From Bacilli bacterium (lineage in GTDB: Bacteria > Bacillota_I > Bacilli_A > RF39 > UBA660), in contig JAGARQ010000029.1 of assembly GCA_017622175.1 (NCBI GenBank), positions 30,002 through 94,001 on the forward strand: a DNA stretch of 64,000 bases, read 5' to 3'. Position 1 is the first letter of the stretch. Every line of letters begins with the position of its first letter. Positions 12,436 to 46,503 of the stretch are shown here, piece by piece. Under the pieces are notes generated by a model. That model had not been told where the DNA came from and did not search any database. It saw nothing but the letters and a program-made list of their open reading frames with translations. A program made the position numbers and the translations under genes.

Positions 12436-12468
12436 GAAATAAAAAGAACACTAATTTTCAGTGTTCTT
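12436..12468 (-). terminator. Rho-independent terminator of tig
   Basis: 9-bp stem AAGAACACT (12444-12452) / AGTGTTCTT (12460-12468), 7-nt loop. On the minus strand it is followed by TTTTTATTT. Lies 8 nt after the tig stop. Confidence 0.65.
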
Positions 12469-28751: not shown

Positions 28752-30815
28752 CTATGGTCTTGGAGGTGGTCCACCAGGTCCTCCACCAGCCCATGGATAA
28801 GCATCATCTGTAAGTCCTGTATAACCTTCTTTAGTATCTGATTCATATGTATAATGTTGTCCTGTTGTTGTTGGATTTCTGTGTGCTGAATCAATTGATG
28901 CATCTGGCGGTGTTTGAGCATCTAAAATTGGATTTCCAGCTTCATCAAGTGCAACACCTCTGTATTGTACTTCGATTGGTCCTGCATCACCAGCATCATA
29001 TGTATATGTTGTATCTGTTGAAGTTGTGTGAACTTTTCTTGCTGAACGATATGTGTCTTGACGAATGTCAATTACACGTGGTGTTGTACCAAGTACACTT
29101 CTTTGTTCTTCCATTGTTTTAACAACTTTAGCAGCTTTTCCAGCTCTAGATGAAGCATTTTGATATGCATCATATAGTTTTTCATATCTATCACGTGCAG
29201 CTGCTTTTCCTGCTGCATCAGATGTTTCGTAATCCATTTTTGCCATTTCCATTTGTTTTTGTAATGCCGCTGCTCTATCATCCCAAGTATCTTGTTCATA
29301 TTTAGCTGCAGCAAGGGCATTACGTCCAATACCAAGTTCATTGGCACGTCTTTCTCTTGTTTCATAGTTAAGTCTATCTTGCATGTATCCAGCAAGTCCA
29401 CCATGAGCATCTTTATCTCCAGTTCTAATTTTAGCCATTGTATCGCTGTTTTGTGACCAGATAGCTCCAAGTGGAACAGCTTTTCCTTGATTGTATCCTT
29501 GAGTAGCTGCTTCTGTTCCTTGCATTGCTCCGTAGGCAAATCCTTTTAGACCACCACCACCAGCAAGCATTGCTGTTCCTCCAAGTAATCCTGCAAGTCC
29601 AACATTTGAACCAGCTCCCTTGATTCCAAGAATATCTTTTATAAACTTAGGTGCTTGTTTTACGAAGAAGAATAATCCTATCCAGATAAAGATACAAGAT
29701 AATACTCCAACAAGACCTGTTCCTGTATTGATTACAATTCCATTAACAATCATATCTTGAATTAGGAATATTACAAAGTAGATTACTGCTAAATGAATAA
29801 ATAATTCTAAGTATGTTGATGTTAAGGCTTTTGTCCAAGCACCAAATGCTCCATCTTTTTCTGATTTTGGATCGATGTAACTAATAATTGGAATTGGTGC
29901 AAGTAAACGTAATACTGCTAATTTTACTGAACGAATTGCAATTGTAATAATTTCTCCTAAAAGGATATAAATAAAGATTGCTGCTACAATTGTAGATACA
30001 ATTGGTAAATATGCAAATACATATCTATCTCCAGTAAATAATCTTGTAAAGAATGCTGCCATTGTATCAAAGAAACCATCATTACCTTGATATTCACAAC
30101 TTGCATTTACTAATGATAATATTTGATTTGGACTTGCTTCTAAATCTGCATAGGCATCTAAAACATCTTGTTCAATAAAGTCACAAACTCTATCGTCTGG
30201 ATTTGTTTCATCCATACCACCAGATTCTTTCATATTAATTCTTACAAATCCTTTAAGGATTGTTGAGGTAAACATATTAGCAGATTTTTTTAGTTTTTCT
30301 GCTTGAGTTAATGCTGTATTGGTTCCTCCACTTCCACTAGAACCAGTTCCATCATTTGTTCCTAATATTAATCTACCTAAAGTGTTGTTTTCTAAAATTC
30401 TATCTTGCAACTCATATAATGTACCAAATAATAAACCGTTATTATTAAGATTAATTTCATAACTACTTCGCGCTCCTGGAATATTAATTGGAGTTAATAC
30501 TGTTAACATAATTAGAGCAAAAATAACCCTACTGATTATGCTCGAAAATCCTGACTTTTTATCTGTAAAAGTATCAGGATTGATTATACCTTGAATAATT
30601 GAAACTCCAAGTTTAAATAGCATGAATACACCTATAATCATTTGAACACGACCATAGAATTTTTGTACTGTATCATTTGCAAAAATATCTGCACTTGCTA
30701 CGTTAAACAAAATTTCATACATTCCACCTAGTAATATGTATGCTGCTTTATCTAACAACGCGAATAAACTTCTAAACAAGTCGTTTATCGTGTTGGCTGT
30801 CATATAATCTGTCAT
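28752..30815 (-). CDS. VirB6/TcpH/ConG-like polytopic T4SS channel protein with ~270-aa hydrophilic C-terminal extension
   Basis: 687 aa. At least 6 TM helices in the first ~400 aa, interrupted by a Gly/Ser loop (GTNDGTGSSGSGGTN). Position between VirB2-like and VirB3/VirB4. The C-terminal region is soluble, partly coiled-coil-like, and ends WAGGGPGGPPPRP. Confidence 0.6.
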   Translation of the reverse strand: MTDYMTANTINDLFRSLFALLDKAAYILLGGMYEILFNVASADIFANDTVQKFYGRVQMIIGVFMLFKLGVSIIQGIINPDTFTDKKSGFSSIISRVIFALIMLTVLTPINIPGARSSYEINLNNNGLLFGTLYELQDRILENNTLGRLILGTNDGTGSSGSGGTNTALTQAEKLKKSANMFTSTILKGFVRINMKESGGMDETNPDDRVCDFIEQDVLDAYADLEASPNQILSLVNASCEYQGNDGFFDTMAAFFTRLFTGDRYVFAYLPIVSTIVAAIFIYILLGEIITIAIRSVKLAVLRLLAPIPIISYIDPKSEKDGAFGAWTKALTSTYLELFIHLAVIYFVIFLIQDMIVNGIVINTGTGLVGVLSCIFIWIGLFFFVKQAPKFIKDILGIKGAGSNVGLAGLLGGTAMLAGGGGLKGFAYGAMQGTEAATQGYNQGKAVPLGAIWSQNSDTMAKIRTGDKDAHGGLAGYMQDRLNYETRERRANELGIGRNALAAAKYEQDTWDDRAAALQKQMEMAKMDYETSDAAGKAAARDRYEKLYDAYQNASSRAGKAAKVVKTMEEQRSVLGTTPRVIDIRQDTYRSARKVHTTSTDTTYTYDAGDAGPIEVQYRGVALDEAGNPILDAQTPPDASIDSAHRNPTTTGQHYTYESDTKEGYTGLTDDAYPWAGGGPGGPPPRP

Positions 30816-30843
30816 TTTTTAATCACCTCTTTTTTGCTCTAAA

Positions 30844-31911
30844 CTATTGTAATCCACAGATTCCACTTGATGTTATATTAAATAGTTCTAATAGCGCTCC
30901 AATTAAATCTGGTAAGAAGAATAAACTGGCAGCAAGAATTAATCTTATGATTAATTTACTTTGCGCTTTTTTCATACCATCATCGTCACCCATTACAACA
31001 ACTTTAGCAAAATCTATACCGCTCATTACAACTACTATAAATGGACCAATTAATTTAATCCAATTAAATATAATTTGTAAGAAATATGCTACTGAATTTG
31101 GATCATTGTAACTACCTAAGATACTGTTATCTCCAGTACAATCTTGATTTTGATTATAATCTTCTAACCATTCATCCATATCAGGGTCACCATATGCTGC
31201 GTGATATGCTCTAGCACTTGTTTCTTGACCATCTGTTAAACTATAACCACTTTCTTTTTTATTAGATAATAAATATACATAAACGTCATTTTCTTTTTTT
31301 ACATTTCTAAATATTAATTCATGATTATCTAATAATGTGTTATCTATTTTAATTTCTAATTTATTATCTTTATATACTTTAAATATTGAGTCGTTTGTTG
31401 AATCAAAGTTTAGTCCATCAACTGACCATTCTTTAGTTCCATCATCTAATACTCTTATGTATGGGATAAAATAGTTATCTTCATTATAAATTCCTACACT
31501 ACTAAGAGCAGTAGTCTCTACTGCTTTTTTTACAGAAATATTTGTGTTTGAATCAAATTCATATGCACTTATTGTAGTACATTTTCCATTACATTCATCT
31601 TTACTTTTAGGATTATTAAACACAGTTGTAAAGATTTCTGTTTCTTCAATTGTGATTGTTGGACAAACATAACTATTACTATTTTCTTTTGCTAATTTTA
31701 AATATTTTTTAGCAAAGTCTTGTTCATGATACCAATTATTTTTTCCATCTTCAAATGGCAATTCTGTTTTACCATTAATTGTATAAACTAATTCTTTATC
31801 TTGATATTGATATTTACATGTTACCTTTGCTTCTTTTGCATTAATATTATTTGGTATAAGCAGTGCTACTAATACTGCTAAAATTAAACCAAAAAGTTGC
31901 TTTTTTTTCAT
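30844..31911 (-). CDS. Secreted protein with C-terminal VirB2/TrbC-like two-TM hairpin
   Basis: 355 aa. Signal peptide MKKKQLFGLILAVLVALLIPNNINA, ~250-aa ectodomain. The C-terminus IGPFIVVVMSGIDFAKVVVMGDDDGMKKAQSKLIIRLILAASLFFLP is homologous to the 106-aa ORF upstream. Confidence 0.55.
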   Translation of the reverse strand: MKKKQLFGLILAVLVALLIPNNINAKEAKVTCKYQYQDKELVYTINGKTELPFEDGKNNWYHEQDFAKKYLKLAKENSNSYVCPTITIEETEIFTTVFNNPKSKDECNGKCTTISAYEFDSNTNISVKKAVETTALSSVGIYNEDNYFIPYIRVLDDGTKEWSVDGLNFDSTNDSIFKVYKDNKLEIKIDNTLLDNHELIFRNVKKENDVYVYLLSNKKESGYSLTDGQETSARAYHAAYGDPDMDEWLEDYNQNQDCTGDNSILGSYNDPNSVAYFLQIIFNWIKLIGPFIVVVMSGIDFAKVVVMGDDDGMKKAQSKLIIRLILAASLFFLPDLIGALLELFNITSSGICGLQ

Positions 31912-31950
31912 AAGATCACTCCAAATACATTATAACATATTAAGTATAAC

Positions 31951-31986
31951 AAAAGAAAAAAAAAATAGCAATTTATTTACTATTTT
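31951..31986 (-). terminator. Weak hairpin / possible attenuator after the VirB2-like gene
   Basis: 7-bp AT-rich stem AAAATAG (31962-31968) / CTATTTT (31980-31986), 11-nt loop. Followed on the minus strand by about 10 T's. Weak stem. Confidence 0.25.
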
Positions 31987-32003
31987 TTATTTTTTGCTTT
32001 ATA

Positions 32004-32324
32004 TTATACTGATTCCCAGCAAGACCACCAATTTCCAGTATTTCCAGTTCCACCTTTAGCAACAACATCCATTACTGCTTTTACTAGGAATACTACGAAG
32101 AAAATTAGCGCTGCATAAATAGCACGTTTGATTAATCTACTTTGTGCTGCCTTAACTTCTTTTTCATCACTTGCAATTACTGCTTTACCGAAATCGATAA
32201 CTGCATATACAAGTAATGCAATTGGAATAACAATATATACAATTGGGAATAACCCGTTTTTAACTAAACTTACTAGTGGGTCTAATCCTCCACAAGCTGA
32301 AGCTAATTGAACTAATTCTAACAT
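32004..32324 (-). CDS. VirB2/TrbC-like pilin-type T4SS protein (two-TM hairpin)
   Basis: 106 aa. Two TM helices joined by a charged loop: FPIVYIVIPIALLVYAVIDFGKAVIASDEKEVKAAQSRLIKRAIYAALIFFVVFLV. Strong RBS GAAGGAGAGG. Size and topology match VirB2/TrbC and the pilin-like conjugal transfer proteins of Firmicutes/Mollicutes. Confidence 0.55.
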   Translation of the reverse strand: MLELVQLASACGGLDPLVSLVKNGLFPIVYIVIPIALLVYAVIDFGKAVIASDEKEVKAAQSRLIKRAIYAALIFFVVFLVKAVMDVVAKGGTGNTGNWWSCWESV

Positions 32325-32379
32325 ACAAACCTCTCCTTCAATGTATATAATACATTATATCATTTTTTTTGTCAAATAT

Positions 32380-33459
32380 TTAACGTCTAAATAAACCAAA
32401 TATTTTTCCAGAACCATTACCACCTTGGGTTATTTGTAATAAACCAATTTTAGCAAGTAATTCGGTTACAATTTCATTTTTCTTTCTATCGTTTACTGGT
32501 GGTAAATTAAAGAATGATTTGATTCCTGCTTCATACTCTAATTCACTTACATCTTTACTAGTTAGTAAACTTTGATTGAAAACGATTTTTTTATCTTTTA
32601 TTTTTCCAAAAATATTTTTGTTTTTTCTAATTAATTTATTTAATTTTAATGTGCTTGGTTCTAATAGATATATTACATCATCACAAATTGAATTATCTTC
32701 ATAATCATTTAAATCTATTAGAAGTACAGATATTCCACTATATCTTTCAATTAGTGTTTTTACATCATTTGTTGTTGTTGATAACATATTTTTATCATTG
32801 TAGAATTGAAAATCATTTTTGTTTATTTCTACTGCAACAACATTGTTTTCACCAAATACTGATGCTAATTCTTTTTTAAACATATAAATTAAACTTGTTG
32901 CTCCTGCATGTTCTGTAACATTTCTAACTCCAACTTTTATAGTTCTTGCCATGTTACCTTGCTGAACTTGAACTTGATGATGAGCAGGTGCAATAAATCC
33001 TCCACCTGCTGGAGCATGTTGTTCTTCTACTTGTTCTTGAGCTGGCTCTGGTTGTTGAAGTTCTTCAATTACTCCACCACCCATTTGTTGGATATGAGCC
33101 ACATCATTATATGTATTTGAATTTTTTAGTAAATATTTAACCCCATCAATATTTGTTGTGAAATTATATATTCCTAAGGTTACTAGTTTAGCTAAGAAAG
33201 TTGGAGTACATAGACTACTACCTTCTGGAATATAGAAAATAATTTTATCAGCATCTAAACCATCTGCTAATGTCTTATATTCTAAGATATTATTATAATT
33301 TTTTATTGCTGTTACATCTAGAACCATTTTACTATAGAAGAAATTTTTAAACATTTCAACTAATTCATTAGAACTATATGCACCAGTTATGCTTTTAATA
33401 ATATCGACATCTAAGTTAGCCATTTGACTTTGTTGTTCATTTGAAACTATTACGTTCAC
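32380..33459 (-). CDS. TadZ/CpaE-like protein: receiver-like N-domain plus ParA/MinD-like domain with degenerate Walker A
   Basis: 359 aa. N-terminal ~125 aa with CheY-like beta/alpha periodicity, then a Q/P-rich linker (QQPEPAQEQVEEQHAPAGGGFIAPAHHQVQVQQG). IKVGVRNVTEHAGATSLIYMF stands in place of KGGxGK[ST]. VLLIDLN is Walker-B-like. GTG start. Confidence 0.45.
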   Translation of the reverse strand: MNVIVSNEQQSQMANLDVDIIKSITGAYSSNELVEMFKNFFYSKMVLDVTAIKNYNNILEYKTLADGLDADKIIFYIPEGSSLCTPTFLAKLVTLGIYNFTTNIDGVKYLLKNSNTYNDVAHIQQMGGGVIEELQQPEPAQEQVEEQHAPAGGGFIAPAHHQVQVQQGNMARTIKVGVRNVTEHAGATSLIYMFKKELASVFGENNVVAVEINKNDFQFYNDKNMLSTTTNDVKTLIERYSGISVLLIDLNDYEDNSICDDVIYLLEPSTLKLNKLIRKNKNIFGKIKDKKIVFNQSLLTSKDVSELEYEAGIKSFFNLPPVNDRKKNEIVTELLAKIGLLQITQGGNGSGKIFGLFRR

Positions 33460-33482
33460 TCTGTATCACTCACCCTTTACAA

Positions 33483-33953
33483 CTATTTCATAACTATAGG
33501 CTTTGTATCACCTGAAATTTGGAATATCTTTAGTCCAGGTAATATTTTATTAATGATTGGTATGTCTATATTAATTTGTGTAACTACTTTAAAATAGGCT
33601 CTATCTTTTGTATCTTGCGTACTACCAACTTGAACTGAATTCATTGGTATTTTCTTAATACAATATCCTGCTCCATCACCACAATCCCATTTTGCACCAT
33701 TTTCTTCATCTTTTAAATCTAAGTTTGGCGCATTATATCCTAGAGAATTCATATATGATTGTATTTCTAGGTGACAATCATTTGTTGGGTCTACTTCACA
33801 TTGACCTTCATATTGCTCTATTGTTGAGATAATTTTATTTTTTACTCTGAATGCTTTAGTATAGTTAACATTGAATGCTAAATATCCAGAGACTAGTGTA
33901 AGGAACACAACGATGATAGCTAAGTTTGCTACCCCACCAAAAGCATCACGCAT
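33483..33953 (-). CDS. TadE/TadF-like pseudopilin candidate
   Basis: 156 aa. MRDAFGGVANLAIIVVFLTLVSGYLAFNV is a short polar leader ending in Gly-Gly followed by a hydrophobic helix. Four Cys in the ectodomain. Lies directly downstream of the Flp-like ORF. Confidence 0.45.
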   Translation of the reverse strand: MRDAFGGVANLAIIVVFLTLVSGYLAFNVNYTKAFRVKNKIISTIEQYEGQCEVDPTNDCHLEIQSYMNSLGYNAPNLDLKDEENGAKWDCGDGAGYCIKKIPMNSVQVGSTQDTKDRAYFKVVTQINIDIPIINKILPGLKIFQISGDTKPIVMK

Positions 33954-33971
33954 TTAAACACACCTTCTTTA

Positions 33972-34139
33972 TTACTTTTCTACAATTACAGTACTAACTC
34001 CACCTGCAGTGATGTTGTCCCATTGAGCATTTAATGACTTTTGAATATTTGGCCACATAACCCAGAAGAATCCGATAACTGCAGCGATTGCTACTAATGT
34101 AATAACTGTTAAGTTTAATTCACCTGTCGCATCTTTCAT
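33972..34139 (-). CDS. Flp-like prepilin (55 aa), absent from the ORF track
   Basis: Hand translation: MKDATGELNLTVITLVAIAAVIGFFWVMWPNIQKSLNAQWDNITAGGVSTVIVEK. ATG at 34139, TAA at 33972-33974. RBS AAAGGATGG. Short charged leader ending in Gly plus a ~22-residue hydrophobic helix. Occupies the canonical flp slot between tadC and the tadE-like gene. Confidence 0.6.
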   Translation of the reverse strand: MKDATGELNLTVITLVAIAAVIGFFWVMWPNIQKSLNAQWDNITAGGVSTVIVEK

Positions 34140-34172
34140 TTACTTTTACCATCCTTTCATTATCATAATTTT

Positions 34173-34201
34173 ATTATAACAAAATAATATTTGTTAAACA
34201 A
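34173..34201 (-). promoter_or_regulatory. Internal sigma-A promoter driving the Flp-like pilin gene
   Basis: Minus strand reads TTGTTT (34201-34196), 17-nt spacer, TGtTATAAT (extended -10, hexamer 34178-34173), about 35 nt upstream of the pilin ATG. Confidence 0.5.
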
Positions 34202-34217
34202 CTTTTTTTTAGTTGGT

Positions 34218-35024
34218 TTACATACTGAACATTGATAGCATTGCTATTAAAATAATAAGCATTACACCAACACCAGTAACAACAAGCATTACCATAGTTT
34301 GTGATTCCATAAATCCTAAACGTTCTTTATATTTTGTTTCACGAGCTTTATTTTGTAATGCTGAAACTGTTTTTGAGAACATCATTAAACGTTCTTGTTT
34401 CTTTTCTTGAGAACCAAGTCCTAAACGATATAATAAACGCATCATACGCATTGAATCTCTTACTGGATATGTATTTGCAAATTCCATATAAGGATCAATT
34501 GTTGCATCACCGGCATTGATTCTATCTATTAATTTTCTAAGTCCAGGTTTGAATATTTCAGGAGCATCGTCAATTGATTTTCCTAAGGCTACTGGAACTG
34601 TATAGTGTTGAATTAATATTTCCAAACTCTTTAAATAGTATGGCAACATAATATCAATTTCATGTAAATGTTTTTTATAATAACTTTTTAATTGTGAGTA
34701 TGATGATTTAAATACTACAAAGGCAACTACTCCTGCGATTGCTAAGTATAAGAAGAATTCAGATCCTAATGTGTCTTGATTTCCACCACTTACTGCAAAT
34801 CCTAAAACGATAAAAAATGTAATGATTGCATAAGTTACTCTTTGCATATATAGTTGTTTAGTATCAACATTATCACCATATCTTGCATATACTAAGAATT
34901 CATAGTCTTTTTCTTTTAGTGCTTCTAGATATTTTTCGTTATCTGCGAAGAATTTATTCTTATCAATGGTATTATTGTAAATTAATACAAATAGTATAAT
35001 TGCACCTATAATTAATACTTCCAT
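34218..35024 (-). CDS. tadC: TadC-like platform protein (T2SSF domain)
   Basis: 268 aa. TM helices flank a cytoplasmic helical domain (LKSLEILIQHYTVPVALGKSIDDAPEIFKPGLRKLIDRINAGDATIDPYMEFANTYP), as in GspF/TadC. Second of two such genes after tadA. Confidence 0.6.
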   Translation of the reverse strand: MEVLIIGAIILFVLIYNNTIDKNKFFADNEKYLEALKEKDYEFLVYARYGDNVDTKQLYMQRVTYAIITFFIVLGFAVSGGNQDTLGSEFFLYLAIAGVVAFVVFKSSYSQLKSYYKKHLHEIDIMLPYYLKSLEILIQHYTVPVALGKSIDDAPEIFKPGLRKLIDRINAGDATIDPYMEFANTYPVRDSMRMMRLLYRLGLGSQEKKQERLMMFSKTVSALQNKARETKYKERLGFMESQTMVMLVVTGVGVMLIILIAMLSMFSM

Positions 35025-35026
35025 TA

Positions 35027-35929
35027 TTATTCAGCTCCTACATTTTCATTATAATATTTTTCTCCTTTTAGAAGGAAATATGTATTTACTATAATTACTG
35101 CATGTAATAAGAATTGAACATACCATCTTTCTAATAGAAGAATGTAACTTTCATTACCTAATAAAAGTTGTACTAACATTACTAATAGGTATAATGTAAT
35201 ACCGAATGTTAGGAAGTTCTTATGGAAGGAAGATCTTTCAATACGGTCACGATATACGCTTTCAATTAACATGTCGATATCTAATTGCATATTATCAAGT
35301 GAATCGGCTGAGTTTCTTGCTCCTTCTTTTGTAATTTGTAAGAATAATTGGTGCATATTTTTTACTATATAATAAGGATATAATTCACTCATGTACTCTA
35401 ATGCTTCATCTATTGTACCATTGTCATATGATAATTCAATCATATGATTTACATCACTTAGAACAGGGTCTTCAAGAATACCTGAGTTTCTAACTCCTTC
35501 TAATGATTTAACAAATGATTGTGTTGTTGCAAATTCCATAATAACGTTTGATGTATATACTTGGATTTGCTCAAAGATAAATTCACTATAAACTCTTTTA
35601 CATCTTAAATAAGCTAAGTAAGGAACAAATGTTACAGCAATAACTGCATACATTAAACTAATAACAATATTATAAAAATATAAATAAGTTATTCCTGCTG
35701 CACCTCCTGCAAAGATACATATTTGCATTACATATTGCTTTGTTGTATATTCTTGCCCTAATTCTTTGGCTTTTTCTCTTACTACTTTGAAGGAGAATGG
35801 TGCGTATTTTTCATAGATTGTTGTAACTTGTTCAGTAATAAATTTTCCTACGTTTTGACCTTTGTAATTTCTATATAAGAAAACACCAACAATAATCACT
35901 ATAATTATTAATAGTTCTTCTACATACAT
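35027..35929 (-). CDS. tadB: TadB-like platform protein (T2SSF domain)
   Basis: 300 aa. SFVKSLEGVRNSGILEDPVLSDVNHMIELSYDNGTIDEALEYMSELYP plus flanking TM helices. Directly downstream of tadA. Confidence 0.6.
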   Translation of the reverse strand: MYVEELLIIIVIIVGVFLYRNYKGQNVGKFITEQVTTIYEKYAPFSFKVVREKAKELGQEYTTKQYVMQICIFAGGAAGITYLYFYNIVISLMYAVIAVTFVPYLAYLRCKRVYSEFIFEQIQVYTSNVIMEFATTQSFVKSLEGVRNSGILEDPVLSDVNHMIELSYDNGTIDEALEYMSELYPYYIVKNMHQLFLQITKEGARNSADSLDNMQLDIDMLIESVYRDRIERSSFHKNFLTFGITLYLLVMLVQLLLGNESYILLLERWYVQFLLHAVIIVNTYFLLKGEKYYNENVGAE

Positions 35930-35948
35930 ACAAACACACTCCTTTCTA

Positions 35949-37244
35949 TTATAGACTATCTAGTTTTGCAACTGCAGGTTGTGAAGGAGTTGCAGAAGCA
36001 GTTGGTTGAGGAGTTGTTGTTTGTTGAACTACAGTTTGTGTTGGTAACGGTTGAACTGTAGGTTGTGCTTGTTGAATTGTATCCTTTTTATCCTCTACTT
36101 TTACTTCCTTCTTTTCTTCAGGAGTTGCCTGACTGATAGAATTATCTTCTAATTTTAAATCTTCTTGTTCTTTAAATGGCATATCATCAGGTAAATTATC
36201 AACTATAGCACTTACATCAATATTTTGATTTTCTAGGAATTGAAGCAAGTGTTCACTTGGCTTACGCATAACAGGATTTTTACCAAATATTTTTTGATAA
36301 ATAATTCTTGATTGAGGAACATTGTTATCATCTACGTAGAATTCACAAACTTCATCTAATTCACGATGGAACTTTCCTCTTTCTTTACTATAGTAAGCTT
36401 TGATATGTACACCCAATTGGATGTAGCGATATATTGTTGATAAGAATTGATTAACATCTAAGTCTGTTTCCATAAGTGAATAAAGACGATATGGAATTGC
36501 TGATGCTTTATCAGCGTGGATTGTAGATAAGATGTTGTGTCCTGATGAAATTGAGTTACGTACTGCAGAAACTGCTTCAGCACTACGAACTTCTGATAGT
36601 AGAATCCATTTTGGATTCTGACGCATACAAGTAACTAATACATCTGAGTAACTTGCAACGTTGTTGGTCTTCATTGAAACAATATCTCTTTGTGGGAAGA
36701 TTTTGTCTAAGTGAAGTTCCAATGTATCTTCAATTGTGATAATTTTTTCACTTGTTTTAGTATGACTAGCTAGATATTTAACGAACTCTGTTTTTCCGGA
36801 ACCAGTTTCTCCTGCTACCATAACATTACAGTGTCCTTGTACACAATTTATTAATAAATCATGAACATCTTTTGTAAAGTAGTCATCTTTAATTAATTTG
36901 TCTTTTTCCAAACGAATTTTTGCTGGTGTTTTACGAATAACCAAGGCAATTCCGTTTGTAGCAATTGACTGGTGTACGAAGTTCATACGCAACTCTGCGG
37001 ATTCTGCATCTAGAAAAGGCTTAGCATTATTAAATGTTGTTCCCATTACGTTAGAACATTGGAATGCTAATTTTTCTACGAATTCGGGAGTTGCACCTTC
37101 TATTTCTACACGTAGGGATCCCTGAGTTAGAGAACGTATCCATATTTGCCCTCCGTTACTGTATGAAATATCGGTAATATCATCGTTGTCTAATAATGGA
37201 CGAAATGCACCGAAGTCTAACTTGTCAAAAATATTTTCATTCAT
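35949..37244 (-). CDS. tadA: CpaF/TadA-family secretion ATPase (VirB11/T2SSE superfamily) with P/Q/T-rich C-terminal tail
   Basis: 431 aa. Walker A VAGETGSGKTEF, Asp box ITIEDTLEL, Walker B WILLSEVRSAEA, His box GHNILSTIHAD. The last ~90 aa are low complexity (QQAQPTVQPLPTQTVVQQTTTPQPTASATPSQP). Confidence 0.85.
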   Translation of the reverse strand: MNENIFDKLDFGAFRPLLDNDDITDISYSNGGQIWIRSLTQGSLRVEIEGATPEFVEKLAFQCSNVMGTTFNNAKPFLDAESAELRMNFVHQSIATNGIALVIRKTPAKIRLEKDKLIKDDYFTKDVHDLLINCVQGHCNVMVAGETGSGKTEFVKYLASHTKTSEKIITIEDTLELHLDKIFPQRDIVSMKTNNVASYSDVLVTCMRQNPKWILLSEVRSAEAVSAVRNSISSGHNILSTIHADKASAIPYRLYSLMETDLDVNQFLSTIYRYIQLGVHIKAYYSKERGKFHRELDEVCEFYVDDNNVPQSRIIYQKIFGKNPVMRKPSEHLLQFLENQNIDVSAIVDNLPDDMPFKEQEDLKLEDNSISQATPEEKKEVKVEDKKDTIQQAQPTVQPLPTQTVVQQTTTPQPTASATPSQPAVAKLDSL

Positions 37245-37292
37245 CTAACTCACATCCCTTTAATATCTTTTTGTTTTCTTTTATTCTTTATT

Positions 37293-38099
37293 TTATGTTT
37301 CTTGCCAAACTGTAACTTTATTAATCCAGTCTTTTAATGATTCACTACTGATTTCTAATTCTCCTGGTTCATCTTTTAAACTTTCGTTTGTTGGAACTGG
37401 GATTAGTGTTGAATCATATGTTCTTAAGTATTCTGCTTTCTTTAATAAGATATAGTATTCTTCTGGTAAAGCAAATACTATCATTGATGGTGTTCTTTGC
37501 TCATCTAAATTTGAGAATACTGCTTGTCCAGCTGAATCTTTAACTGCTAATACTTTTACGTTAGACATTAATTTTCCTAACATAATCTTGTTAGCATCTG
37601 CTGTCATTTCTTCTCCATCAGCAATTTTATTAACTGCTTTTAGGTAAATATCAATGTAGTTACCTGGGTAAACTGAGTTACCGTATGTTGTTTGTGTTGT
37701 AACTGACATATTATATAATACGTATCCTTTTGGATATGTAAGGATAATATTTCCTGGTAGTTGTTCTTTTTCTACTACTGTTCTTTCATAGAATAAACTA
37801 CCTGCAGGTATAACTGTATCTGCACTTGAGAATTTATCAATTACTGCACTTTGAGATGTAATAACATCTCCTTCTAACATTGATGGTGGAACTGCTCTTG
37901 TACCAACCATATTTGCGGTAATTTGTGTTCCTGGTGAAATTTGTTCTTTGGCATATGGTACATTTATTGGATTGATAGCTGATTGAACACGCATATTATA
38001 TGCAACATATAATACAATGATTGCAACTACTACTCCAAGAACAGTTACAGTGTTTTTGTTTTGTAAAAACTTTTTAATTCCTGTAGTTAGATTTCCCAT
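37293..38099 (-). CDS. CpaB/RcpC-like Flp pilus assembly protein (SAF domain)
   Basis: 268 aa. N-terminal TM, then AKEQISPGTQITANMVGTRAVPPSML (SAF-like), IPAGSLFYERTVV, PGNYIDIYL, VKVLAVKD, MIVFALPEEYYILLKKAEYL. These match the CpaB pattern. Confidence 0.65.
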   Translation of the reverse strand: MGNLTTGIKKFLQNKNTVTVLGVVVAIIVLYVAYNMRVQSAINPINVPYAKEQISPGTQITANMVGTRAVPPSMLEGDVITSQSAVIDKFSSADTVIPAGSLFYERTVVEKEQLPGNIILTYPKGYVLYNMSVTTQTTYGNSVYPGNYIDIYLKAVNKIADGEEMTADANKIMLGKLMSNVKVLAVKDSAGQAVFSNLDEQRTPSMIVFALPEEYYILLKKAEYLRTYDSTLIPVPTNESLKDEPGELEISSESLKDWINKVTVWQET

Positions 38100-38119
38100 T
38101 TTATTCCTCTCCTTCTCTC

Positions 38120-38605
38120 TTATCTTCTTTCTTTTCCATCTTCTTTAATAATTGGATTTCCAGTTGTATCAGTTGGGTCTTTTAAAGCTTTTTCTGTAAG
38201 TGGGTCTTCAGTATAATCTGCTTCTAGAATTGCATCAAGACTTGTTGAAATATTTGCTGCTTCTCCAGAGAAACTTAATACTGTATGTGAATCTACTTTT
38301 ACACTTACTTTTGGTGGCACTTCGTTAATATCATAAAAACTTACTGTATATGAACGAGTACTATCAACGCTATCAGCGAATCGACGAAGGAAACTCTCAA
38401 TGAATTTTTCCTTGTCGATTCTGATTAGCGAATTTAATCTATAATATTCTAGGTCTACTGCATCTTCCATTGCAGCTTCTGTTGTTTCTTTTACTAGGTA
38501 GTAGTCTAGTTCTCCACCTGTTGAATAGTTACTAATAACATTGATTAATAATAATGCCATTAAACTTAATAAAATAATTCCTACTGTTAACATTCCTTTA
38601 TTCAT
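38120..38605 (-). CDS. Pilin-like / minor pseudopilin candidate
   Basis: 161 aa. MNKGMLTVGIILLSLMALLLINV is a very short leader ending in Gly followed by M-L-T and a hydrophobic helix (type IV prepilin-like, but no Glu at +5). Small soluble domain. Confidence 0.35.
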   Translation of the reverse strand: MNKGMLTVGIILLSLMALLLINVISNYSTGGELDYYLVKETTEAAMEDAVDLEYYRLNSLIRIDKEKFIESFLRRFADSVDSTRSYTVSFYDINEVPPKVSVKVDSHTVLSFSGEAANISTSLDAILEADYTEDPLTEKALKDPTDTTGNPIIKEDGKERR

Positions 38606-38620
38606 ATATTATTTAGCCTC

Positions 38621-41602
38621 CTATTCTACACTTGAACGGTAGTTTTCATTGTTTACTCCAGGTTTTCCTAATTTAATAATTGAGTTAGGAACTTCTGTTA
38701 AAACTTTTGTATGACTTCCTACATTTCTAAATAAATTACTTTGATATACTTTAATTCCGTTTACTAGTTCAACTGTACCATCCCATGATGCATAATCATT
38801 ATTATTATTATAAGATTTGATTTTTGCAAGAGTTGCTGGTGTTAAGTAGAATTTGTAATCTAGGTTATTTGCATCATCACTATATAGTGTTGCTGCACCA
38901 TTTTCAATGTGGTCAATTAATGCTACAGGGTCAACTACATATTTATCATTTTTGATTGATAATGCTTTTGATGTCCAGTTGAATCCGATTTCTCGTTTAT
39001 CTGGATCTACAACTCCTTCTTCCACTGCATTAGGGAATAGGTTATTTACTGCAACTGATCTAAATGTATAATTACTTACACCATTTGATTCTTTTGCTGT
39101 TGTTCCACAACATCCATTTTCTTGAACATTACAAATTTCATTTCTTAATCCATAGAAACAATTGATATCGAAATTCCATCCGAAATATCCAAATTTCTTA
39201 GCTTTAGCTGAAATATTGTATCCATTTGATGTTCCTGTTTTTCCTGCTAATTCACTTTCAATTTCTGAACGTGTATAACATGTATTTCCAAGTTTATACC
39301 ATTCCCACCATTTTACGTTTACACTATCTGCATCTAATGGCATACAGAATTTTTTATCATCATAGTACCAACCGTCTGTAACATCTGGTCTTTGGAATGA
39401 TATTTCTCCAGTTTTGTTATGAATATAAGTTCCTGGGAAACTCCATTCAGTCATGTAATGATTTCCTACATCTTTGTTTTTATAACATCCATCGAAATCA
39501 AGAATTGATGATCTACTTCTATCAGTTATATTATTTGTTTTATTTGCGATTAATGTATCTTTCTTAGTATCGTATGGGAATGTTACTGTATTTTGTTTTT
39601 TAACTTCATTTGTTGTTGTATCGTATGTTAATGAAATTGAGAATTCTGCAGTATGTTCTGAACATGTTGCTGTTCCAATACAAGATCTTACTGCATCTTC
39701 GTATGCTGCTTGGTTAGCTTTTGCATCTTGTTCAATTGTACCTGGATTTAAGTAATCATTTCCGTCAACTGAATTAGGTGTTCTTTGACATAATCCTGTT
39801 GTCTTGTTAGCTTTATCTTCTGCATCACCTTTATATCTCCAGTGACAATTATCAGTACATAATGAATTATATCTATTTGAACGATAGATACCATCTTGGT
39901 CTGCTACATATGAATCCCAATCACCACCGGCTTCAACACTATCTTTATATGCTTCTTTTATTCCTGTAATCTTATATCCGCCATTACTACGTACGTAATT
40001 AGCATTAGCATTCCACTCATCTAAATAAGTTCCATCTGCTTGTTTATATACTCTATCAATATACCAACGTCCTAAGGCATATCTTCTATTCCATACTTGT
40101 TGTTTGAAAACAGCTTCTTCTTTTCCGTTTACTGTTTCTACTGCATAATTTGTATGAGATAACCATTTAATTTCATCACCATTATATACATAACATCCAA
40201 AATAATTAGCATTATCTTTTAGACATTGTGCTTGGCTATATAAACTAGCATCTGTTGCCATTGCTGTTTTTGCAAGAAGTGCATCTTCATAATTGATGGC
40301 AAGTTTTGGATTTGATTTTCCATACACTTCGTTATAACATTTAATACTACATTTTTCTGAGTATTTTCCACCATCACATGATTTAACACATTGATCAAAT
40401 TGTTCTTTTGGTCCAGCTTGTTCTAGATTTCTAAGTGTTCCATTTATTGAATAACAAATTGGTGCTGGATTACAATAACTTGTAAATTCTTTTGGTGGTT
40501 GTGCAATAACTTCTGCTGTACATTTTACATAACTTGTTACTTTTACTTTATATTCAAAACATAGTCCAGCTTTTGAAGCAATTGGTGGTCCATACTCTAC
40601 TTTTACTGCTTCTTCACAAGTTCTTTTACACGCTTGTTGTGTATCTGTTACTGTGTTACCAGGAGCAAAGTTATATACATATTTTACTTCTCCATCAATT
40701 GTTGTTGCTGATGAGTAATAATAATCTTTGTTTAAATAATAATCTATTGAAGATATAGAATCTCCATATTCGTTTGTATAAACTACTGGTGTGTCTGCTC
40801 CAGTTTTTACTTTATCATAAGCACATTTTAATGTAAGTGTTGTGTTTAATGGATCTAGCACAACATTTGTTGTTGGATACTTATGAGCTTTGTCCTTAAC
40901 ATCATTAAATAAAGCATTAAAATCAGCTGTACCTGAGTTATTTTGATTTTGATAAGCAGTCCATAATGAGACAATACTATCTATTTTCTTTTGTAATTCT
41001 GTTTCAGTGTAGTTAACTACTACTGATGTTTGATAACAGTATGGTAAAGCTGTTTCGAAGAACGCAACTCCGTTTTGAGCAATTGCTGTTTGTCTGAAGT
41101 TTGCACATAATCCATAATAATTTGTATTTGCCTTACCTACAGTTCCTGTACCTGCAGCTTCTCTTTCTTCAAGGTATTGAACTTCAATCTTTTCATCTGG
41201 ATTAGCTACGTTTTCTACTATAACTGACACATAATATGTGTTACCATTGATTGGTCCTAAGAAACCGGCTTTGAACACATGATTATTGTTGTCTTTTGTT
41301 AATGTTACTCCTGTTGTAACAGCAGTTCCATTTACCGAAATAATTTTAACAGATACATCTGAGTGAACTTTACCGTCTTCACATTTTATTGCTGGATCTT
41401 TAATAAGTCTGAACTCATCAGGATTTCCAGTTGCTTCTATATATAATCCGTATTTATCGACTAGTTGTTCACATGACAATGGTGTAACTGTTTCAGTAGC
41501 GGTTGGCGCTTCTTCTGCTTTAATTTGCGGAATAACCATAACCGCACAAATCATTACTAATAAAATGACAACCCCAATTATTCTACGCTTTAGATTTTGC
41601 AT
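38621..41602 (-). CDS. Large Cys-rich secreted protein (candidate fibre tip, adhesin or effector)
   Basis: 993 aa from ATG at 41602 (MQNLKRRIIGVVILLVMICAVMVIPQIKAEE, 9 nt after GGAAGGAG). The track start at 41623 is TTG. About 29 Cys in the mature part by my count, often paired (QQACKRTCEE, DQCVKSCDGGKYSEKCSIKCY, NGCCGT). No LPXTG or C-terminal TM. No family recognised. Confidence 0.6.
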   Translation of the reverse strand: MQNLKRRIIGVVILLVMICAVMVIPQIKAEEAPTATETVTPLSCEQLVDKYGLYIEATGNPDEFRLIKDPAIKCEDGKVHSDVSVKIISVNGTAVTTGVTLTKDNNNHVFKAGFLGPINGNTYYVSVIVENVANPDEKIEVQYLEEREAAGTGTVGKANTNYYGLCANFRQTAIAQNGVAFFETALPYCYQTSVVVNYTETELQKKIDSIVSLWTAYQNQNNSGTADFNALFNDVKDKAHKYPTTNVVLDPLNTTLTLKCAYDKVKTGADTPVVYTNEYGDSISSIDYYLNKDYYYSSATTIDGEVKYVYNFAPGNTVTDTQQACKRTCEEAVKVEYGPPIASKAGLCFEYKVKVTSYVKCTAEVIAQPPKEFTSYCNPAPICYSINGTLRNLEQAGPKEQFDQCVKSCDGGKYSEKCSIKCYNEVYGKSNPKLAINYEDALLAKTAMATDASLYSQAQCLKDNANYFGCYVYNGDEIKWLSHTNYAVETVNGKEEAVFKQQVWNRRYALGRWYIDRVYKQADGTYLDEWNANANYVRSNGGYKITGIKEAYKDSVEAGGDWDSYVADQDGIYRSNRYNSLCTDNCHWRYKGDAEDKANKTTGLCQRTPNSVDGNDYLNPGTIEQDAKANQAAYEDAVRSCIGTATCSEHTAEFSISLTYDTTTNEVKKQNTVTFPYDTKKDTLIANKTNNITDRSRSSILDFDGCYKNKDVGNHYMTEWSFPGTYIHNKTGEISFQRPDVTDGWYYDDKKFCMPLDADSVNVKWWEWYKLGNTCYTRSEIESELAGKTGTSNGYNISAKAKKFGYFGWNFDINCFYGLRNEICNVQENGCCGTTAKESNGVSNYTFRSVAVNNLFPNAVEEGVVDPDKREIGFNWTSKALSIKNDKYVVDPVALIDHIENGAATLYSDDANNLDYKFYLTPATLAKIKSYNNNNDYASWDGTVELVNGIKVYQSNLFRNVGSHTKVLTEVPNSIIKLGKPGVNNENYRSSVE

Positions 41603-42431
41603 TTTTTTCATCTCCTTCCACAATTTTTCTTATTTCTTCATAATTCTTGTTTGCTTTTGATTCATAATTGTTTAACTTTTCATTTTCTCTTAATTGTCTT
41701 CCTACAACAACAAGTTGTCTTTTGTCATATTGACCAAACATTCTTGTACAAGTTGTTAATGTAATTAATTTATCATTTTCATCAACTTCTATGTCAAAAT
41801 CGTAGACATTTAATTCTTTTATTTGATTTAAATATTTTTTAGTTTCTTCTTTTGTGTAGTTTTCTTCATGCCTTAAGTCAAGATTAAAACTTCTATCAAA
41901 GAATACACCAAATATTTTATAAACATAATCTTCTCCATTTATTGTATATTGAATATGTTTATTTTCAGCTACAAAGTCTTCATAGACAAAAGCCATTAAA
42001 TCATCAAATCTAGAAAAATATTCTTTACCAATTAGTGGTTGTTTAGATAAATTTAGTATATTATGTCCAGATATTGCCACTTGATTAAATAGTTTTTCTT
42101 TATTGTTACTATTCCAAGCATAATCTGCTTTTTCTACTTTATCAAGAGCAGTTACATTGTCATAACTAATTATCGGAGTATCAATATTTGTTCCTTGCAC
42201 TCTTAACCAAGCTATTGTTTCATAACCTAATTCTTTTTTATCTTTTTTCTTTTCTTTTTCGATTGTTTTTATTCTACTTTCAACTTCAAATTTCTTTGTA
42301 TCTGTATTATTTATGATTACTAATAAAGCTGATACAATACAGCAACAAATCAGAAGACCTGTTACTAAGACTAATGTCTTGATCCTCTGACTTTGTTTTA
42401 ATTTTAATTTTTTCTTTCGCAACTTCGTCAT
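41583..42431 (-). CDS. srtB: Class B sortase
   Basis: 282 aa. N-terminal TM, IAWLRVQGTNIDTPIISY, ISGHNILN (catalytic His), LITLTTCTR (TLXTC Cys), QLVVVGRQLR (Arg). The layout matches SrtB-type enzymes. Confidence 0.75.
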   Translation of the reverse strand: MTKLRKKKLKLKQSQRIKTLVLVTGLLICCCIVSALLVIINNTDTKKFEVESRIKTIEKEKKKDKKELGYETIAWLRVQGTNIDTPIISYDNVTALDKVEKADYAWNSNNKEKLFNQVAISGHNILNLSKQPLIGKEYFSRFDDLMAFVYEDFVAENKHIQYTINGEDYVYKIFGVFFDRSFNLDLRHEENYTKEETKKYLNQIKELNVYDFDIEVDENDKLITLTTCTRMFGQYDKRQLVVVGRQLRENEKLNNYESKANKNYEEIRKIVEGDEKNAKSKA

Positions 42432-42439
42432 TGTTACAC

Positions 42440-44251
42440 CTACTTACTAACTGTATATGGAAAATCAACTGTTCCATTTCCTTTTGTAATATTTACTGAT
42501 TTTTTCAAATTAGCTACAACTCTTATTCCATATTTGTCGTAGTTTCCAATTCCGTCTGTTAGAACAACGCCTGCATCGGTTACCGCTGTTTTTTGTAATT
42601 CGCTTTTTGTTGAATTGATTAGCCAATAAGAACGAGTTGAATTAACCACTGTTGATTTTGAACTAAACATTTCATACATATTTGGAGCTGATAGTTTAAC
42701 TTTATATTTTTTTGTTTCAGTTTGTTTTCCATATAGCATTCCATTTTCGTAGATAGGAACTTCGATGTTCTTATTTACAAAATATGATGTATCAATAAAC
42801 TCACTTACTTTGTTGTTTATATAATGTCCAACATTTCCTTTTTGAAGTGGATTGTAAGTTTTTTCTTCAGTTTTTACATCTTCATAATTTGTCGTTACAT
42901 TTGTTCCACTTTGTTTAACATTTTCTACGGAAATTATTCTTGTTGTCCCATCACTATTCACTTCTAAAATTCTCCATAAAATACCTCCATAACTAATGTA
43001 TTCACCAGAGTATCTTTTATTTATTGGTTCATCAGATTTACCTGTTTTAATTTCACCAAATTCATATGGGGAAATTCTAGTTCCATCACCTTTTTTAATA
43101 AGCGTATCTCCTTTTATTGTTAAAACAGGACGTACTCCATAATTTTTTTCTTTTGAATCAATGTAGAATCTACTTCCAGCAGCATTACCATAGAAAACGC
43201 TTCTTGTTGTATATGCTGTTTTATCATCCGCTACGTTTGCTAACCATGAAATTGTAGAAGGTTTCATAAATGAATTTTTATTTTCATCTAGTGTTTTATT
43301 AACATCAACAACTGATGGAATATATGCATATCTATTTTTTGTATATGCAGTACACTCTAAGGCTGATGAATTTTCAGCAGTAACTGGCATATTACAATAT
43401 TTGTTTTTTACTAATAGTTTTTTTGCTTCTTCAGCAATGTGTTTCATATAGTAATTATCTAGCCAAGAACTAATTCCTGAGTAGTTTACATTTGCAATAT
43501 CTTCTTCTGCTACAACTTTAACATTTTCTCCATCTATGCCAATAATTCTAAATAACATTCCTGATAATCTTACATAATTATTTGGCGTTGCTCCTGTATA
43601 GTATCCTTTTTTTTCTGTTGCAACATTAACTGCATTTTTAATTTTTGATACAACTTCAACAGTTCTTGTAACTGTTGTTTTATTTTTTAGAGCATCTAAA
43701 ACTGTATATGTAACTTCATATGTACCAACTTTATTAGTGTCCACCTTCTTAGAGTTAATTGTTACTTTTTTTGTATCTATTTTTCCATCTGTATTATCAA
43801 CTACGCTTTTTACTCCAAGTTCTTTATATTTTTCTCCTAAATCAACTGTGATTTTATCCGAACCATTCAATTTAATATCTGGTCCTTTATTATCTACATT
43901 TGATTTCATAGCACCACATTGTAGATATGTATAGTATTTATACTCTCCATCTACTTTTCTTACTTTCACCCATGATTCTTTTAAATCACATGGTTTATCA
44001 GTATAAGGAATATAAAAATCTTCTTCTAAATATGATTTATGATATAAAGTTTGCATATCTACAGTTGCTACACGTGTTCCTGTAGGTAGTTCTGTATGAT
44101 TAAGATTAAAATACCTTTTGGCTGCTGTTTCTAAAGTGTTTTCATATTTTTTAAAACTATACATCGGTTTAATTACTATAAACCAAGCAAATAAGGCTAT
44201 TATTACTACTACAACTAAAAGTTTTATATATTTCATTGTCTTGCTATTCAT
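42440..44251 (-). CDS. Membrane-anchored surface protein: Ig-like (DUF5011-type) domain plus two DUF6273-like modules
   Basis: 603 aa. N-terminal TM. GPDIKLNGSDKITVDLGEKYKELGVKSVVDNTDGKIDTKKV...VGTYEVTYTVLDALKNKTTVTRTVEVV fits the DUF5011 Ig pattern. Two modules follow, ending YGVRPVLTIKGDTLIKKGDGTRISPYEFG and YGIRVVANLKKSVNITKGNGTVDFPYTVSK. Confidence 0.55.
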   Translation of the reverse strand: MNSKTMKYIKLLVVVVIIALFAWFIVIKPMYSFKKYENTLETAAKRYFNLNHTELPTGTRVATVDMQTLYHKSYLEEDFYIPYTDKPCDLKESWVKVRKVDGEYKYYTYLQCGAMKSNVDNKGPDIKLNGSDKITVDLGEKYKELGVKSVVDNTDGKIDTKKVTINSKKVDTNKVGTYEVTYTVLDALKNKTTVTRTVEVVSKIKNAVNVATEKKGYYTGATPNNYVRLSGMLFRIIGIDGENVKVVAEEDIANVNYSGISSWLDNYYMKHIAEEAKKLLVKNKYCNMPVTAENSSALECTAYTKNRYAYIPSVVDVNKTLDENKNSFMKPSTISWLANVADDKTAYTTRSVFYGNAAGSRFYIDSKEKNYGVRPVLTIKGDTLIKKGDGTRISPYEFGEIKTGKSDEPINKRYSGEYISYGGILWRILEVNSDGTTRIISVENVKQSGTNVTTNYEDVKTEEKTYNPLQKGNVGHYINNKVSEFIDTSYFVNKNIEVPIYENGMLYGKQTETKKYKVKLSAPNMYEMFSSKSTVVNSTRSYWLINSTKSELQKTAVTDAGVVLTDGIGNYDKYGIRVVANLKKSVNITKGNGTVDFPYTVSK

Positions 44252-44259
44252 AATGCCTC

Positions 44260-45813: not shown

Positions 45814-45929
45814 TTGTATCTACACTCCCTTACCCTATTCTTTTTTAGTATATCGTATTTTTTATAAAAATAAAAGATGGTAATGTAGAAAAAAGTCCCT
45901 ATTTATATAAGGACTTTTTAATTTTAAAT

Positions 45930-45962
45930 AATAAAAAAAGATAATCATGCTTGATTATCTTT
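45930..45962 (-). terminator. Rho-independent terminator of greA (upstream boundary of the cluster)
   Basis: 11-bp stem AAAGATAATCA (45937-45947) / TGATTATCTTT (45952-45962), loop TGCT. Followed on the minus strand by T's. Begins 3 nt after the greA stop. A second weaker hairpin (AAAGTCC/GGACTTT) follows at about 45890-45920. Confidence 0.6.
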
Positions 45963-45964
45963 AT

Positions 45965-46435: not shown

Positions 46436-46503
46436 TTCTATCACCTCATTGTAAATGTTTATCTAAATTTTTAGATAGTTGAACTCTAGACTCAACTTGC
46501 GAT

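Follow-up and report, generated by a model that had tools for sequence, protein, structure and literature searches.

A small gene of uncultured gut Bacilli with its own conserved promoter encodes a candidate pilin beside a secretion ATPase module

The small gene, its promoter and its protein family

Here, we analyze a 64,000-nucleotide (nt) stretch of contig JAGARQ010000029.1 (GCA_017622175.1) from an uncultured gut bacterium of the Bacilli, referred to as the window, and in it a minus-strand open reading frame (ORF) of 55 codons (ATG at 34139-34137, stop at 33974-33972) that lies in an apparent gap of 264 nt (33954-34217) within a gene cluster. This ORF is a genuine protein-coding gene under strong purifying selection, preceded by an extended -10 promoter of its own that is conserved across relatives. 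As judged from sequence, its product represents a pilin-like family that is new and has no name, and its signal is noncanonical, with a leader of six amino acids (aa) followed by Glu at +1. We suggest, with a probability of roughly 0.6, that this protein is the main building block of a pilus of the type IV filament-like (Tad/archaeal-type) kind, assembled by the adjacent gene module. The module is embedded in a chromosomal Gram-positive-type type IV secretion system (T4SS) cluster with VirD4, VirB4, a TrbL-like protein and a cell-wall hydrolase.

Direct reading of the sequence placed the ORF, its ribosome-binding site (RBS) and its promoter where the original prediction had placed them (Table 1). 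An in-frame TAA lies directly 5' of the ATG, and M1 is therefore the sole possible start. Several lines of evidence support that the ORF is protein coding. First, a homolog search of 5.8 billion proteins returned 603 clusters of close homologs of 47 to 71 aa, and a profile search of 1.84 billion representatives (E <= 0.001) returned 531 relatives, counted as representatives at 50% identity. The family is widespread, with relatives encoded by at least 148 species genomes in a scan of one genome per species. Second, when 76 distinct sequences are compared along their first 42 codons, the proportions of synonymous (pS) and nonsynonymous (pN) change are 0.53 and 0.097, giving a pN/pS of 0.18. Third, the invariant residues (A4, G6, N9, T11, A17, F24 and P30 among them) use two to four synonymous codons each.

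The carriers are metagenome-assembled genomes (MAGs) of uncultured gut and rumen organisms recorded as Bacilli, Tenericutes, Mollicutes, "Mycoplasma sp. CAG:877" and Ca. Faecimonas intestinavium, the latter listed as Bacilli incertae sedis by NCBI; we take these hosts to correspond to the GTDB order RF39. Neither Pfam, NCBIfam nor the literature provided a family name for the protein, its distant relatives are likewise without one, and all 603 clusters, including GenBank MAG records, are unnamed or labeled "hypothetical protein". The lack of a family name explains why annotation pipelines write "hypothetical", and short-ORF cutoffs skip the gene altogether. The gene had been described as unannotated; this is true of the ORF track, which has a 60-aa cutoff, but not of public records and gene callers, which already list homologs as hypothetical proteins. 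A megablast search of 30000-40000 against plasmids and phages gave no match, and neither a tblastn search of the family consensus against plasmids nor a scan of viral contigs found anything.

That the gene has a promoter of its own had also been predicted, and the conservation of this element bears the claim out. The window has a GC content of 28.6%, and a match to the promoter consensus is not significant by itself because a consensus scan of 30000-46500 found 89 sites where 105 were expected from shuffled sequence. We accept the promoter as genuine because it is conserved across relatives. Among 75 distinct sequences of the 110 nt 5' of the start codon at related loci, 69 contain the exact TGNTATAAT and 74 at least a near match, against a background for the extended -10 motif of ~0.02 per 110 nt elsewhere in these loci. 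In the 74 regions, anchored on the -10 box, the T, T and G of the -35 box are conserved at 96, 100 and 96%, followed by T/A, T/A and A, with a fixed spacer of 17 nt that is the same as in the window (34201-34173). An A-rich tract 5' of the -35 box also recurs, and the positions flanking the promoter boxes are not conserved. GAAAGGA is the RBS in most of the 75 sequences and close variants of it are found in the remainder, in most cases 30 to 40 nt 3' of the -10 box. The promoter extends to the distant relative L091, in which the pilin-like protein is only ~44% identical and TTGATA-17-TGCTATAAT is kept, while in L089 a terminator-like hairpin (9866-9890) after the upstream gene is followed by TTGATA-17-TATAAT. 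Because the gene for a 156-aa protein begins 18 nt past the stop codon of the 55-aa gene, the two genes are taken to be co-transcribed.

The strict pattern TTGNNN-N14-TGNTATAAT occurs four times in the window when both strands are scanned, always on the minus strand and once inside the cluster. By position, each of the other three copies (47316, 14903 and 14355) immediately precedes an ORF on the minus strand, and all three are likely to be true strong promoters in this organism.

The 55-aa protein has the layout that the original prediction recognized as prepilin-like, i.e., a short charged leader ending in Gly followed by a hydrophobic segment of ~22 residues, and so agrees with the general type IV pilin layout of a short charged leader ending in Gly or Ala followed by ~20 hydrophobic residues. 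The leader, MK[ADE]A[TS]G, has 6 residues, of which M1, A4 and G6 are invariant and K2 nearly so, and the hydrophobic segment spans L8 to W29. Cleavage after Gly6 would give a mature protein of 49 aa. In an AlphaFold2 model based on 32 sequences, residues 10-44 form one long single helix with flexible ends; the confidence score (predicted local distance difference test, pLDDT) exceeds 90 at residues 11-40 and is 79 overall. The consensus of the close family is MK[AD]A[TS]GELNLTVITL[IV]AIAAVIGFFWxMWPNIQxSxNxQWxNI[ST], in which the first 40 positions hardly vary and 26 of them are invariant. Beyond the helix follows a G/P/T-rich linker of variable length with indels, which usually closes with a short hydrophobic end, e.g., IIVER/K. 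The wider family keeps MKEA[TS]GELN[ML]TV[IV]T and ~20 hydrophobic residues; beyond these, divergence is complete, and some members have Cys-rich C-terminal extensions, up to 107 aa. Locus L089 (10001-11592) has two such pilin-like paralogs of 94 and 82 aa in tandem, with Cys-rich C-terminal extensions, and behind them two paralogous 169-aa proteins beginning MRE[AV]IGGTWL. The family shows the pilin pattern of a conserved N-terminal helix, a variable C-terminus and paralogs with a common leader. Filament subunits are characteristically conserved in this way, with an invariant hydrophobic N-terminus and an exposed C-terminus that varies.

Two side observations concern the same residues. The invariant E-L-N-[LM]-T (residues 7-11) fits the bacterial N-glycosylation sequon D/E-X-N-X-S/T. 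We judge this fit to be coincidental, given that the site would be cytoplasmic until assembly and then be buried in the core of the filament. Near the end of the helix, another conserved N-[IV]-[ST] (residues 42-44) would be surface exposed. Separately, one sequence, P0142, joins a canonical Flp leader (KG/QTLVEY) to the body of the 55-aa family. We rejected it as a natural hybrid because it comes from a single 729-bp contig (ENA contig NODE_134582, locus L094) with a coverage of 0.59, on which the downstream ORF itself reads as a fusion of unrelated genes; we read this contig as chimeric.

The neighboring genes

The genes and signals around the 55-aa gene are listed in Table 1.

Table 1. Positions in the window of the 55-aa gene, its expression signals and the genes of the adjacent module
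Feature	Position	Strand	Basis
359-aa conserved protein, always 3' of the 156-aa gene	32380..33459	-	Synteny
Candidate minor pilin, 156 aa, leader MRDAFGGVANLAIIVVF...	33483..33953	-	N-terminus conserved
55-aa pilin-like protein MKDATGELNLTVITLVAIAAVIGFFWVMWPNIQKSLNAQWDNITAGGVSTVIVEK	33972..34139	-	Homologs, AlphaFold2, pN/pS
RBS AAAGGATGG	34149..34157	-	9 nt 5' of ATG
Extended -10 box TG-T-TATAAT	34173..34181	-	Exact TGNTATAAT conserved; predicted start near 34165
-35 box TTGTTT	34196..34201	-	Direct reading; conserved in relatives
A-tract just 5' of the -35 box	~34203-34210	-	Direct reading
268-aa polytopic membrane protein ("tadC" of the original prediction), possible platform protein	34218..35024	-	Conserved position
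300-aa polytopic membrane protein ("tadB" position), possible platform protein	35027..35929	-	Conserved position
T2SSE-family secretion ATPase	35949..37244	-	Pfam T2SSE E = 4e-28
CpaB/RcpC-like protein (SAF + RcpC)	37293..38099	-	TIGR03177, RcpC sub-cutoff
DUF5411 protein	38120..38605	-	PF17424 E = 3e-48

The N-terminus of the 156-aa protein follows M[RKQ][DE]A[FYLI]GG[IV]xN[LI] in ~65 loci and has the same leader shape as the 55-aa protein; the full protein matches no Pfam or NCBIfam model, TadE included, and no T2SSF or TadE structure. The DUF5411 protein begins MNKG/MLTVGIILL, which a scan reads as prepilin-like and class III-like. The CpaB-like protein matches TIGR03177 (pilus_cpaB) over ~190 residues with E = 7e-11 and 41.8 bits, below the cutoff of 71, and Pfam RcpC with 26.9 bits, below the cutoff of 28.8. 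For the 359-aa protein, Pfam and the PDB gave no match; a TadZ-like identity, considered because a degenerate ParA fold seemed visible by eye, was dropped for this lack of support.

All loci with sufficient flank have the same gene order, and that of the pilus module recurs across many species of uncultured gut Bacilli. The full order starts with an Ig-like surface protein, a sortase-like or other protein, a Cys-rich protein of ~990 aa, the DUF5411 protein, the CpaB-like protein and the T2SSE ATPase; it continues with the polytopic proteins of ~300 and ~265 aa, a gap of ~70 to 150 nt and the small gene, which is duplicated in L089; and it ends with one or two proteins of 130 to 170 aa and a protein of ~340 aa. 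Small proteins with two transmembrane (TM) segments come next, and PF18895 matches these weakly in the window and in L005-L007. Beyond them lies the Gram-positive T4SS, with TrbL-like and TraC-like proteins, VirB4, a SpoIID-domain hydrolase and VirD4; among close relatives, T4SS genes adjoin the module in all seven loci with long flanks. In L091, the genes for a cation ATPase and for pyruvate phosphate dikinase flank the block that runs from DUF5411 to the two-TM proteins, and no VirB4 or VirD4 gene is adjacent to it, which argues that the small gene is part of the ATPase module rather than of the T4SS proper. Even there (11720-12458), the last genes of the module encode two small two-TM proteins similar to the weakly PF18895-like one of the window. 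As these proteins are kept, more than one protein of the module may be a candidate for the fiber subunit.

Evidence for a pilin and the alternatives

How might these genes work together? We propose that the 55-aa protein enters the membrane while its short, positively charged leader MK[ADE]A[TS]G stays in the cytoplasm, and that a peptidase whose gene lies in another part of the genome probably cuts off the leader behind the invariant Gly6. Subunits would then be pulled out of the membrane and polymerized by the ATPase and the membrane proteins, such that the invariant hydrophobic helix (residues ~7-30) is packed in the filament core, with its polar end and the hypervariable tail at the C-terminus pointing outward. 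The 156-aa and DUF5411 proteins, which have comparable N-termini, may serve as minor or priming subunits. The near-consensus promoter inside the cluster (UP-like A-tract, -35 box and extended -10 box) would yield the subunit and the downstream genes in excess over the upstream machinery, and from the form of this promoter such an excess is a reasonable inference. Because the module is embedded in a T4SS cluster, the filament probably serves the cell-cell or cell-host contact of that system. The observations that favor a pilin include a genuine gene under selection, the invariant N-terminus with its variable tail, the tandem paralogs, the leader common to the 55-aa and 156-aa proteins, a leader end resembling that of Caulobacter PilA, the linkage to the module, the conserved promoter and the ATPase and CpaB-like partners. 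The predicted 49-aa mature form also has the expected size and shape, i.e., ~40 to 60 aa, helical and without a globular head. Weak class III signals point the same way. Among 150 diverse relatives scanned at E <= 10, PF07790, the archaeal type IV pilin N-terminus, is the weak match with the largest number of carriers (24 of the 150, best E = 0.0038), aligning residues 6-28 with profile positions 8-30, and the NCBIfam class III signal TIGR04205 is matched by nine.

A second set of results weighs against a pilin. For the 55-aa protein itself, no Pfam or NCBIfam family is matched at E <= 1, no pilin hidden Markov model (HMM) reaches its threshold for the family, and Flp_Fap (PF04964) is absent from the 25 Pfam families most often matched by 150 diverse relatives at E <= 10. 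The matches to PF07790, at ~14 bits, stay below its cutoff of 25.2, and Flp1_like is matched by four of the 150 relatives. Glu7 is invariant and would be at +1 after cleavage behind Gly6 or at +3 after cleavage behind Ala4, and the near-universal Glu+5 is missing; only cleavage after Lys2 would place Glu7 at +5, and no known A24 specificity is compatible with this. None of the ORFs scanned in the 64-kb window encodes an A24/TadV prepilin peptidase, its multi-TM ORFs being VTT, rhomboid, TspO and histidine kinase proteins and unassigned proteins without the GxGD motif. Foldseek returned no hits for the one-helix model, profile searches of the PDB with the family gave chance matches to unrelated TM helices and a myosin light chain, and a single predicted helix is not specific to pilins.

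The machinery adds to these objections. The two polytopic proteins lie where TadB/TadC platform proteins would be expected, but they match no T2SSF model or structure, whether by phmmer or profile comparison with the PDB, by scanning 15 to 17 relatives with Pfam at E <= 10 or by hhalign between the two; for the 300-aa protein neither T2SSF nor the PDB gave a match, and for the 268-aa protein T2SSF gave none, while its all-alpha AlphaFold2 model (pLDDT 60, too poor to use) returned nothing in Foldseek. The ATPase scores do not separate TadA from VirB11 cleanly: the NCBIfam models give 107 bits for VirB11, 105 for TadA-conjugal and 92 for FlaI, and the solved structures in the PDB give 71 bits for FlaI, 68.5 for CpaF, 57 for archaeal GspE and 54 for VirB11. 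A Tad identity of the assembly machine is only partly supported.

The main rival to a pilin is a small single-pass membrane part of the secretion or assembly machine that is not polymerized, e.g., a stabilizer, a regulator or an anchor of the ATPase or platform. We consider this unlikely, although the absence of a pilin HMM or peptidase match behind polymerization and of Glu+5 speaks in its favor, as does a plasmid system of like architecture. The best annotated relatives of the ATPase are encoded by Bacillus plasmids of the pLS20 family and labeled "CpaF/VirB11 family" (34-35% identity, E = 4e-41), and plasmid records matched by the ATPase number 649 in all. In the conjugation operon of pLS20 of Bacillus subtilis, a Gram-positive T4SS operon, the order is p36 (126 aa, N-terminal TM), the ATPase p37, the polytopic p38 and p39, p40 (120 aa, N-terminal TM) and tandem 47-aa single-TM proteins, with VirD4 later on; the 47-aa p41 occupies the relative position that corresponds to that of the 55-aa protein. 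In the list of Val-Calvo et al., p37 is a "putative VirB11", and the entry for p36 and for p38-p41 is "Unknown" (PMC8557374). Unlike in the window, the small gene and the gene of ~120 to 156 aa are in reverse order in pLS20, which also has no CpaB-like gene. The small and membrane proteins of pLS20 have no significant sequence similarity to those of the window (hhalign probability of 0.7% for p41), so the parallel is one of architecture. Three further features do not fit a machine part well: a stoichiometric component needs no strong conserved promoter of its own; a hypervariable, indel-rich and sometimes Cys-rich C-terminus beside an invariant N-terminus is typical of surface-exposed polymer subunits; and tandem paralogs suit a pilin better.

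As a side observation, the B. subtilis pLS20-family plasmid NZ_OX419552.1 (locus L093) has two identical 47-aa genes that are annotated and, 5' of them at ~12000-12150 in "intergenic" DNA, one more copy that has diverged and lacks annotation, ..LDQNADRMYWVIGAVLVVGALIGLSVKEYPDILNNVFSGFTAKIPKF.

Within the pilin assignment, the closest parallels are to Flp/Tad pilins and archaeal type IV pilins. The original prediction went further and placed the 55-aa protein in the Flp family; that it is a true but divergent Flp/Fap (type IVc, Tad) pilin with a TadV-type peptidase to process it is in our estimate improbable. Caulobacter crescentus PilA, the sequence of which we verified against PDB 8u1k (mature ATAIEYG..., 45 aa), is similarly very small and is likewise helix-only without a globular domain, a feature noted for this solved Tad pilin (PMC11067988). 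A leader ending K-D-x-[ST]-G, as in the K-D-E-S-G of PilA, and the CpaF-like ATPase and CpaB-like protein encoded alongside likewise point to Flp/Fap. By contrast, the window protein does not match Flp_Fap even at E <= 10, and hhalign of the family against PilA gives a probability of 0.8%. The sole aligned part is MKDATGE against LKDESGA, the end of the PilA leader just before its known cleavage site; this register favors cleavage after Gly6, but the alignment is not significant by itself. The leader has 6 aa here and 14 in PilA, and Glu is at +1 here and at +5 there. The canonical motif G/XXXXEY, correctly reported as missing from the window protein, is absent from every family member seen, the consensus being G/ELN[LM]TV without Tyr. 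TadV, TadB/C (T2SSF) and TadE all lack a recognizable counterpart, the host is monoderm and the module lies inside a T4SS cluster.

The argument from gene position has to be divided in the same way. The small gene was said to sit where flp sits between tadC and tadE. This order is that of actinobacterial tad loci, e.g., in Bifidobacterium breve, but not that of the canonical Aggregatibacter locus, in which flp comes first, and the neighbors taken for "tadC" and "tadE", like the one in the "tadB" position, match no T2SSF or TadE model.

With archaeal type IV pilins, the family shares the very short leader and the weak HMM matches of 24 of the 150 relatives, and the archaeal FlaI is the best solved relative of the window ATPase. 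Unlike in archaeal systems, all matches are sub-threshold, the window protein itself has none and the host is bacterial. We infer that the 55-aa protein works like a Tad/archaeal-type pilin, yet falls outside Flp_Fap.

VirB2-like pilins, which fold as a hairpin of two helices, are a different kind of protein, represented in the window by other, PF18895-like genes. The 55-aa protein shares with them that it is small, hydrophobic and encoded in a T4SS cluster; in contrast to them, it is predicted to have one hydrophobic helix and not a hairpin, and it matches neither PF18895 nor PF04956. PrgF is a VirB2-like Gram-positive T4SS pilin of this kind, a small hydrophobic protein proposed to form a conjugative pilus (bioRxiv 10.64898/2025.12.18.695078). 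A further parallel is given by the DUF5411/CpaF/PilC-GspF operons that Miller et al. 2022 predicted in the gut Clostridia Roseburia, Ruminococcus and Eubacterium as a secretion or pilus system (PMC9523054). There, as here, a DUF5411 protein is encoded beside a CpaF-type ATPase in gut Firmicutes; unlike here, PilC/GspF is recognizable, and no small pilin of the 55-aa family is described.

The weakest alternative, a chance ORF or a conserved noncoding DNA or RNA feature, to which the shortness of the ORF and the ease with which AT-rich DNA yields ORFs and promoter-like sites might point, is effectively refuted by the low pN/pS with synonymous change near saturation and several codons per invariant residue, by hundreds of homologs that hold the reading frame and length class, by an RBS kept in nearly all relatives and by an Rfam search that gave nothing relevant.

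Starting from a pilus subunit as the preferred assignment, a more far-reaching model can be formulated, which we offer as tentative and on balance doubtful. In this model, the module would be a distinct, undescribed type IV-filament lineage of monoderm Bacillota, composed of the DUF5411 protein, the CpaB-like protein, the ATPase, two membrane proteins not recognizable as T2SSF and a Glu+5-less subunit with the signal MKxA[ST]G/E, which a noncanonical peptidase would process or which would stay unprocessed. It would form a contact or DNA-exchange pilus fused to a T4SS in genome-reduced uncultured gut Bacilli, and the architecture would be distantly mirrored by p36-p41 of pLS20. The T4SS of the window, for which we found no relaxase among the ORFs scanned, would then be analogous to the essential T4SS and pilin arrays of Patescibacteria, which have chromosomal T4SS clusters, most of them without a relaxase and often with arrays of VirB2-like pilins nearby (PMC12102498).

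If the 55-aa protein is the major pilus subunit, genome-reduced uncultured gut Bacilli would display an abundant, antigenically variable surface fiber linked to a chromosomal T4SS cluster, with a bearing on their attachment to host or partner cells and on DNA exchange. A pilin of another uncultured gut clade, TANB77, has been reported to modulate the response to immunotherapy (PMC11680825). The signal MK[ADE]A[TS]G/ELN[LM]T would, if cleaved as proposed, broaden the accepted type IV pilin signal to a 6-aa leader without Glu+5. The assignment also suggests what the "VirB11 plus unknowns" block of pLS20-type conjugative plasmids, so far without an explanation, might do, in a form that can be tested.

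The wider cluster and the flanks of the window

The T4SS and pilus cluster spans 19315-45813 and has same-strand housekeeping genes on both sides. By Pfam, the flanks encode a sigma factor, RmuC, a rhomboid protease and a histidine kinase, and by reading of N-termini Lon, trigger factor, TrpS and GreA. Among the window ORFs scanned, neither a relaxase nor an integrase turned up. By analogy to those of Patescibacteria, the cluster looks like a chromosomal, possibly domesticated T4SS.

PF18895 (T4SS_pilin) is matched by three minus-strand genes, at 32004-32324, 30844-31911 and 51835-52713. The two in-cluster proteins match weakly (E = 0.025 and 0.48), and a match above threshold (E = 1.6e-7) occurs in a protein encoded 6 kb outside the cluster, in which it is fused to an NlpC/P60 hydrolase domain. 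All three are candidate VirB2-like pilins distinct from the 55-aa protein.

Upstream in the cluster, the minus-strand gene 38621-41623 encodes a secreted Cys-rich protein of 1000 aa in which no LPXTG-type sorting signal was seen by eye. Its listed TTG start is overlapped by 41 nt by a sortase class B-like gene (41583-42431, minus strand; TIGR03064 E = 1e-15, sub-cutoff). In other loci, the position of the sortase-like gene is taken by an unrelated protein of 253 to 264 aa.

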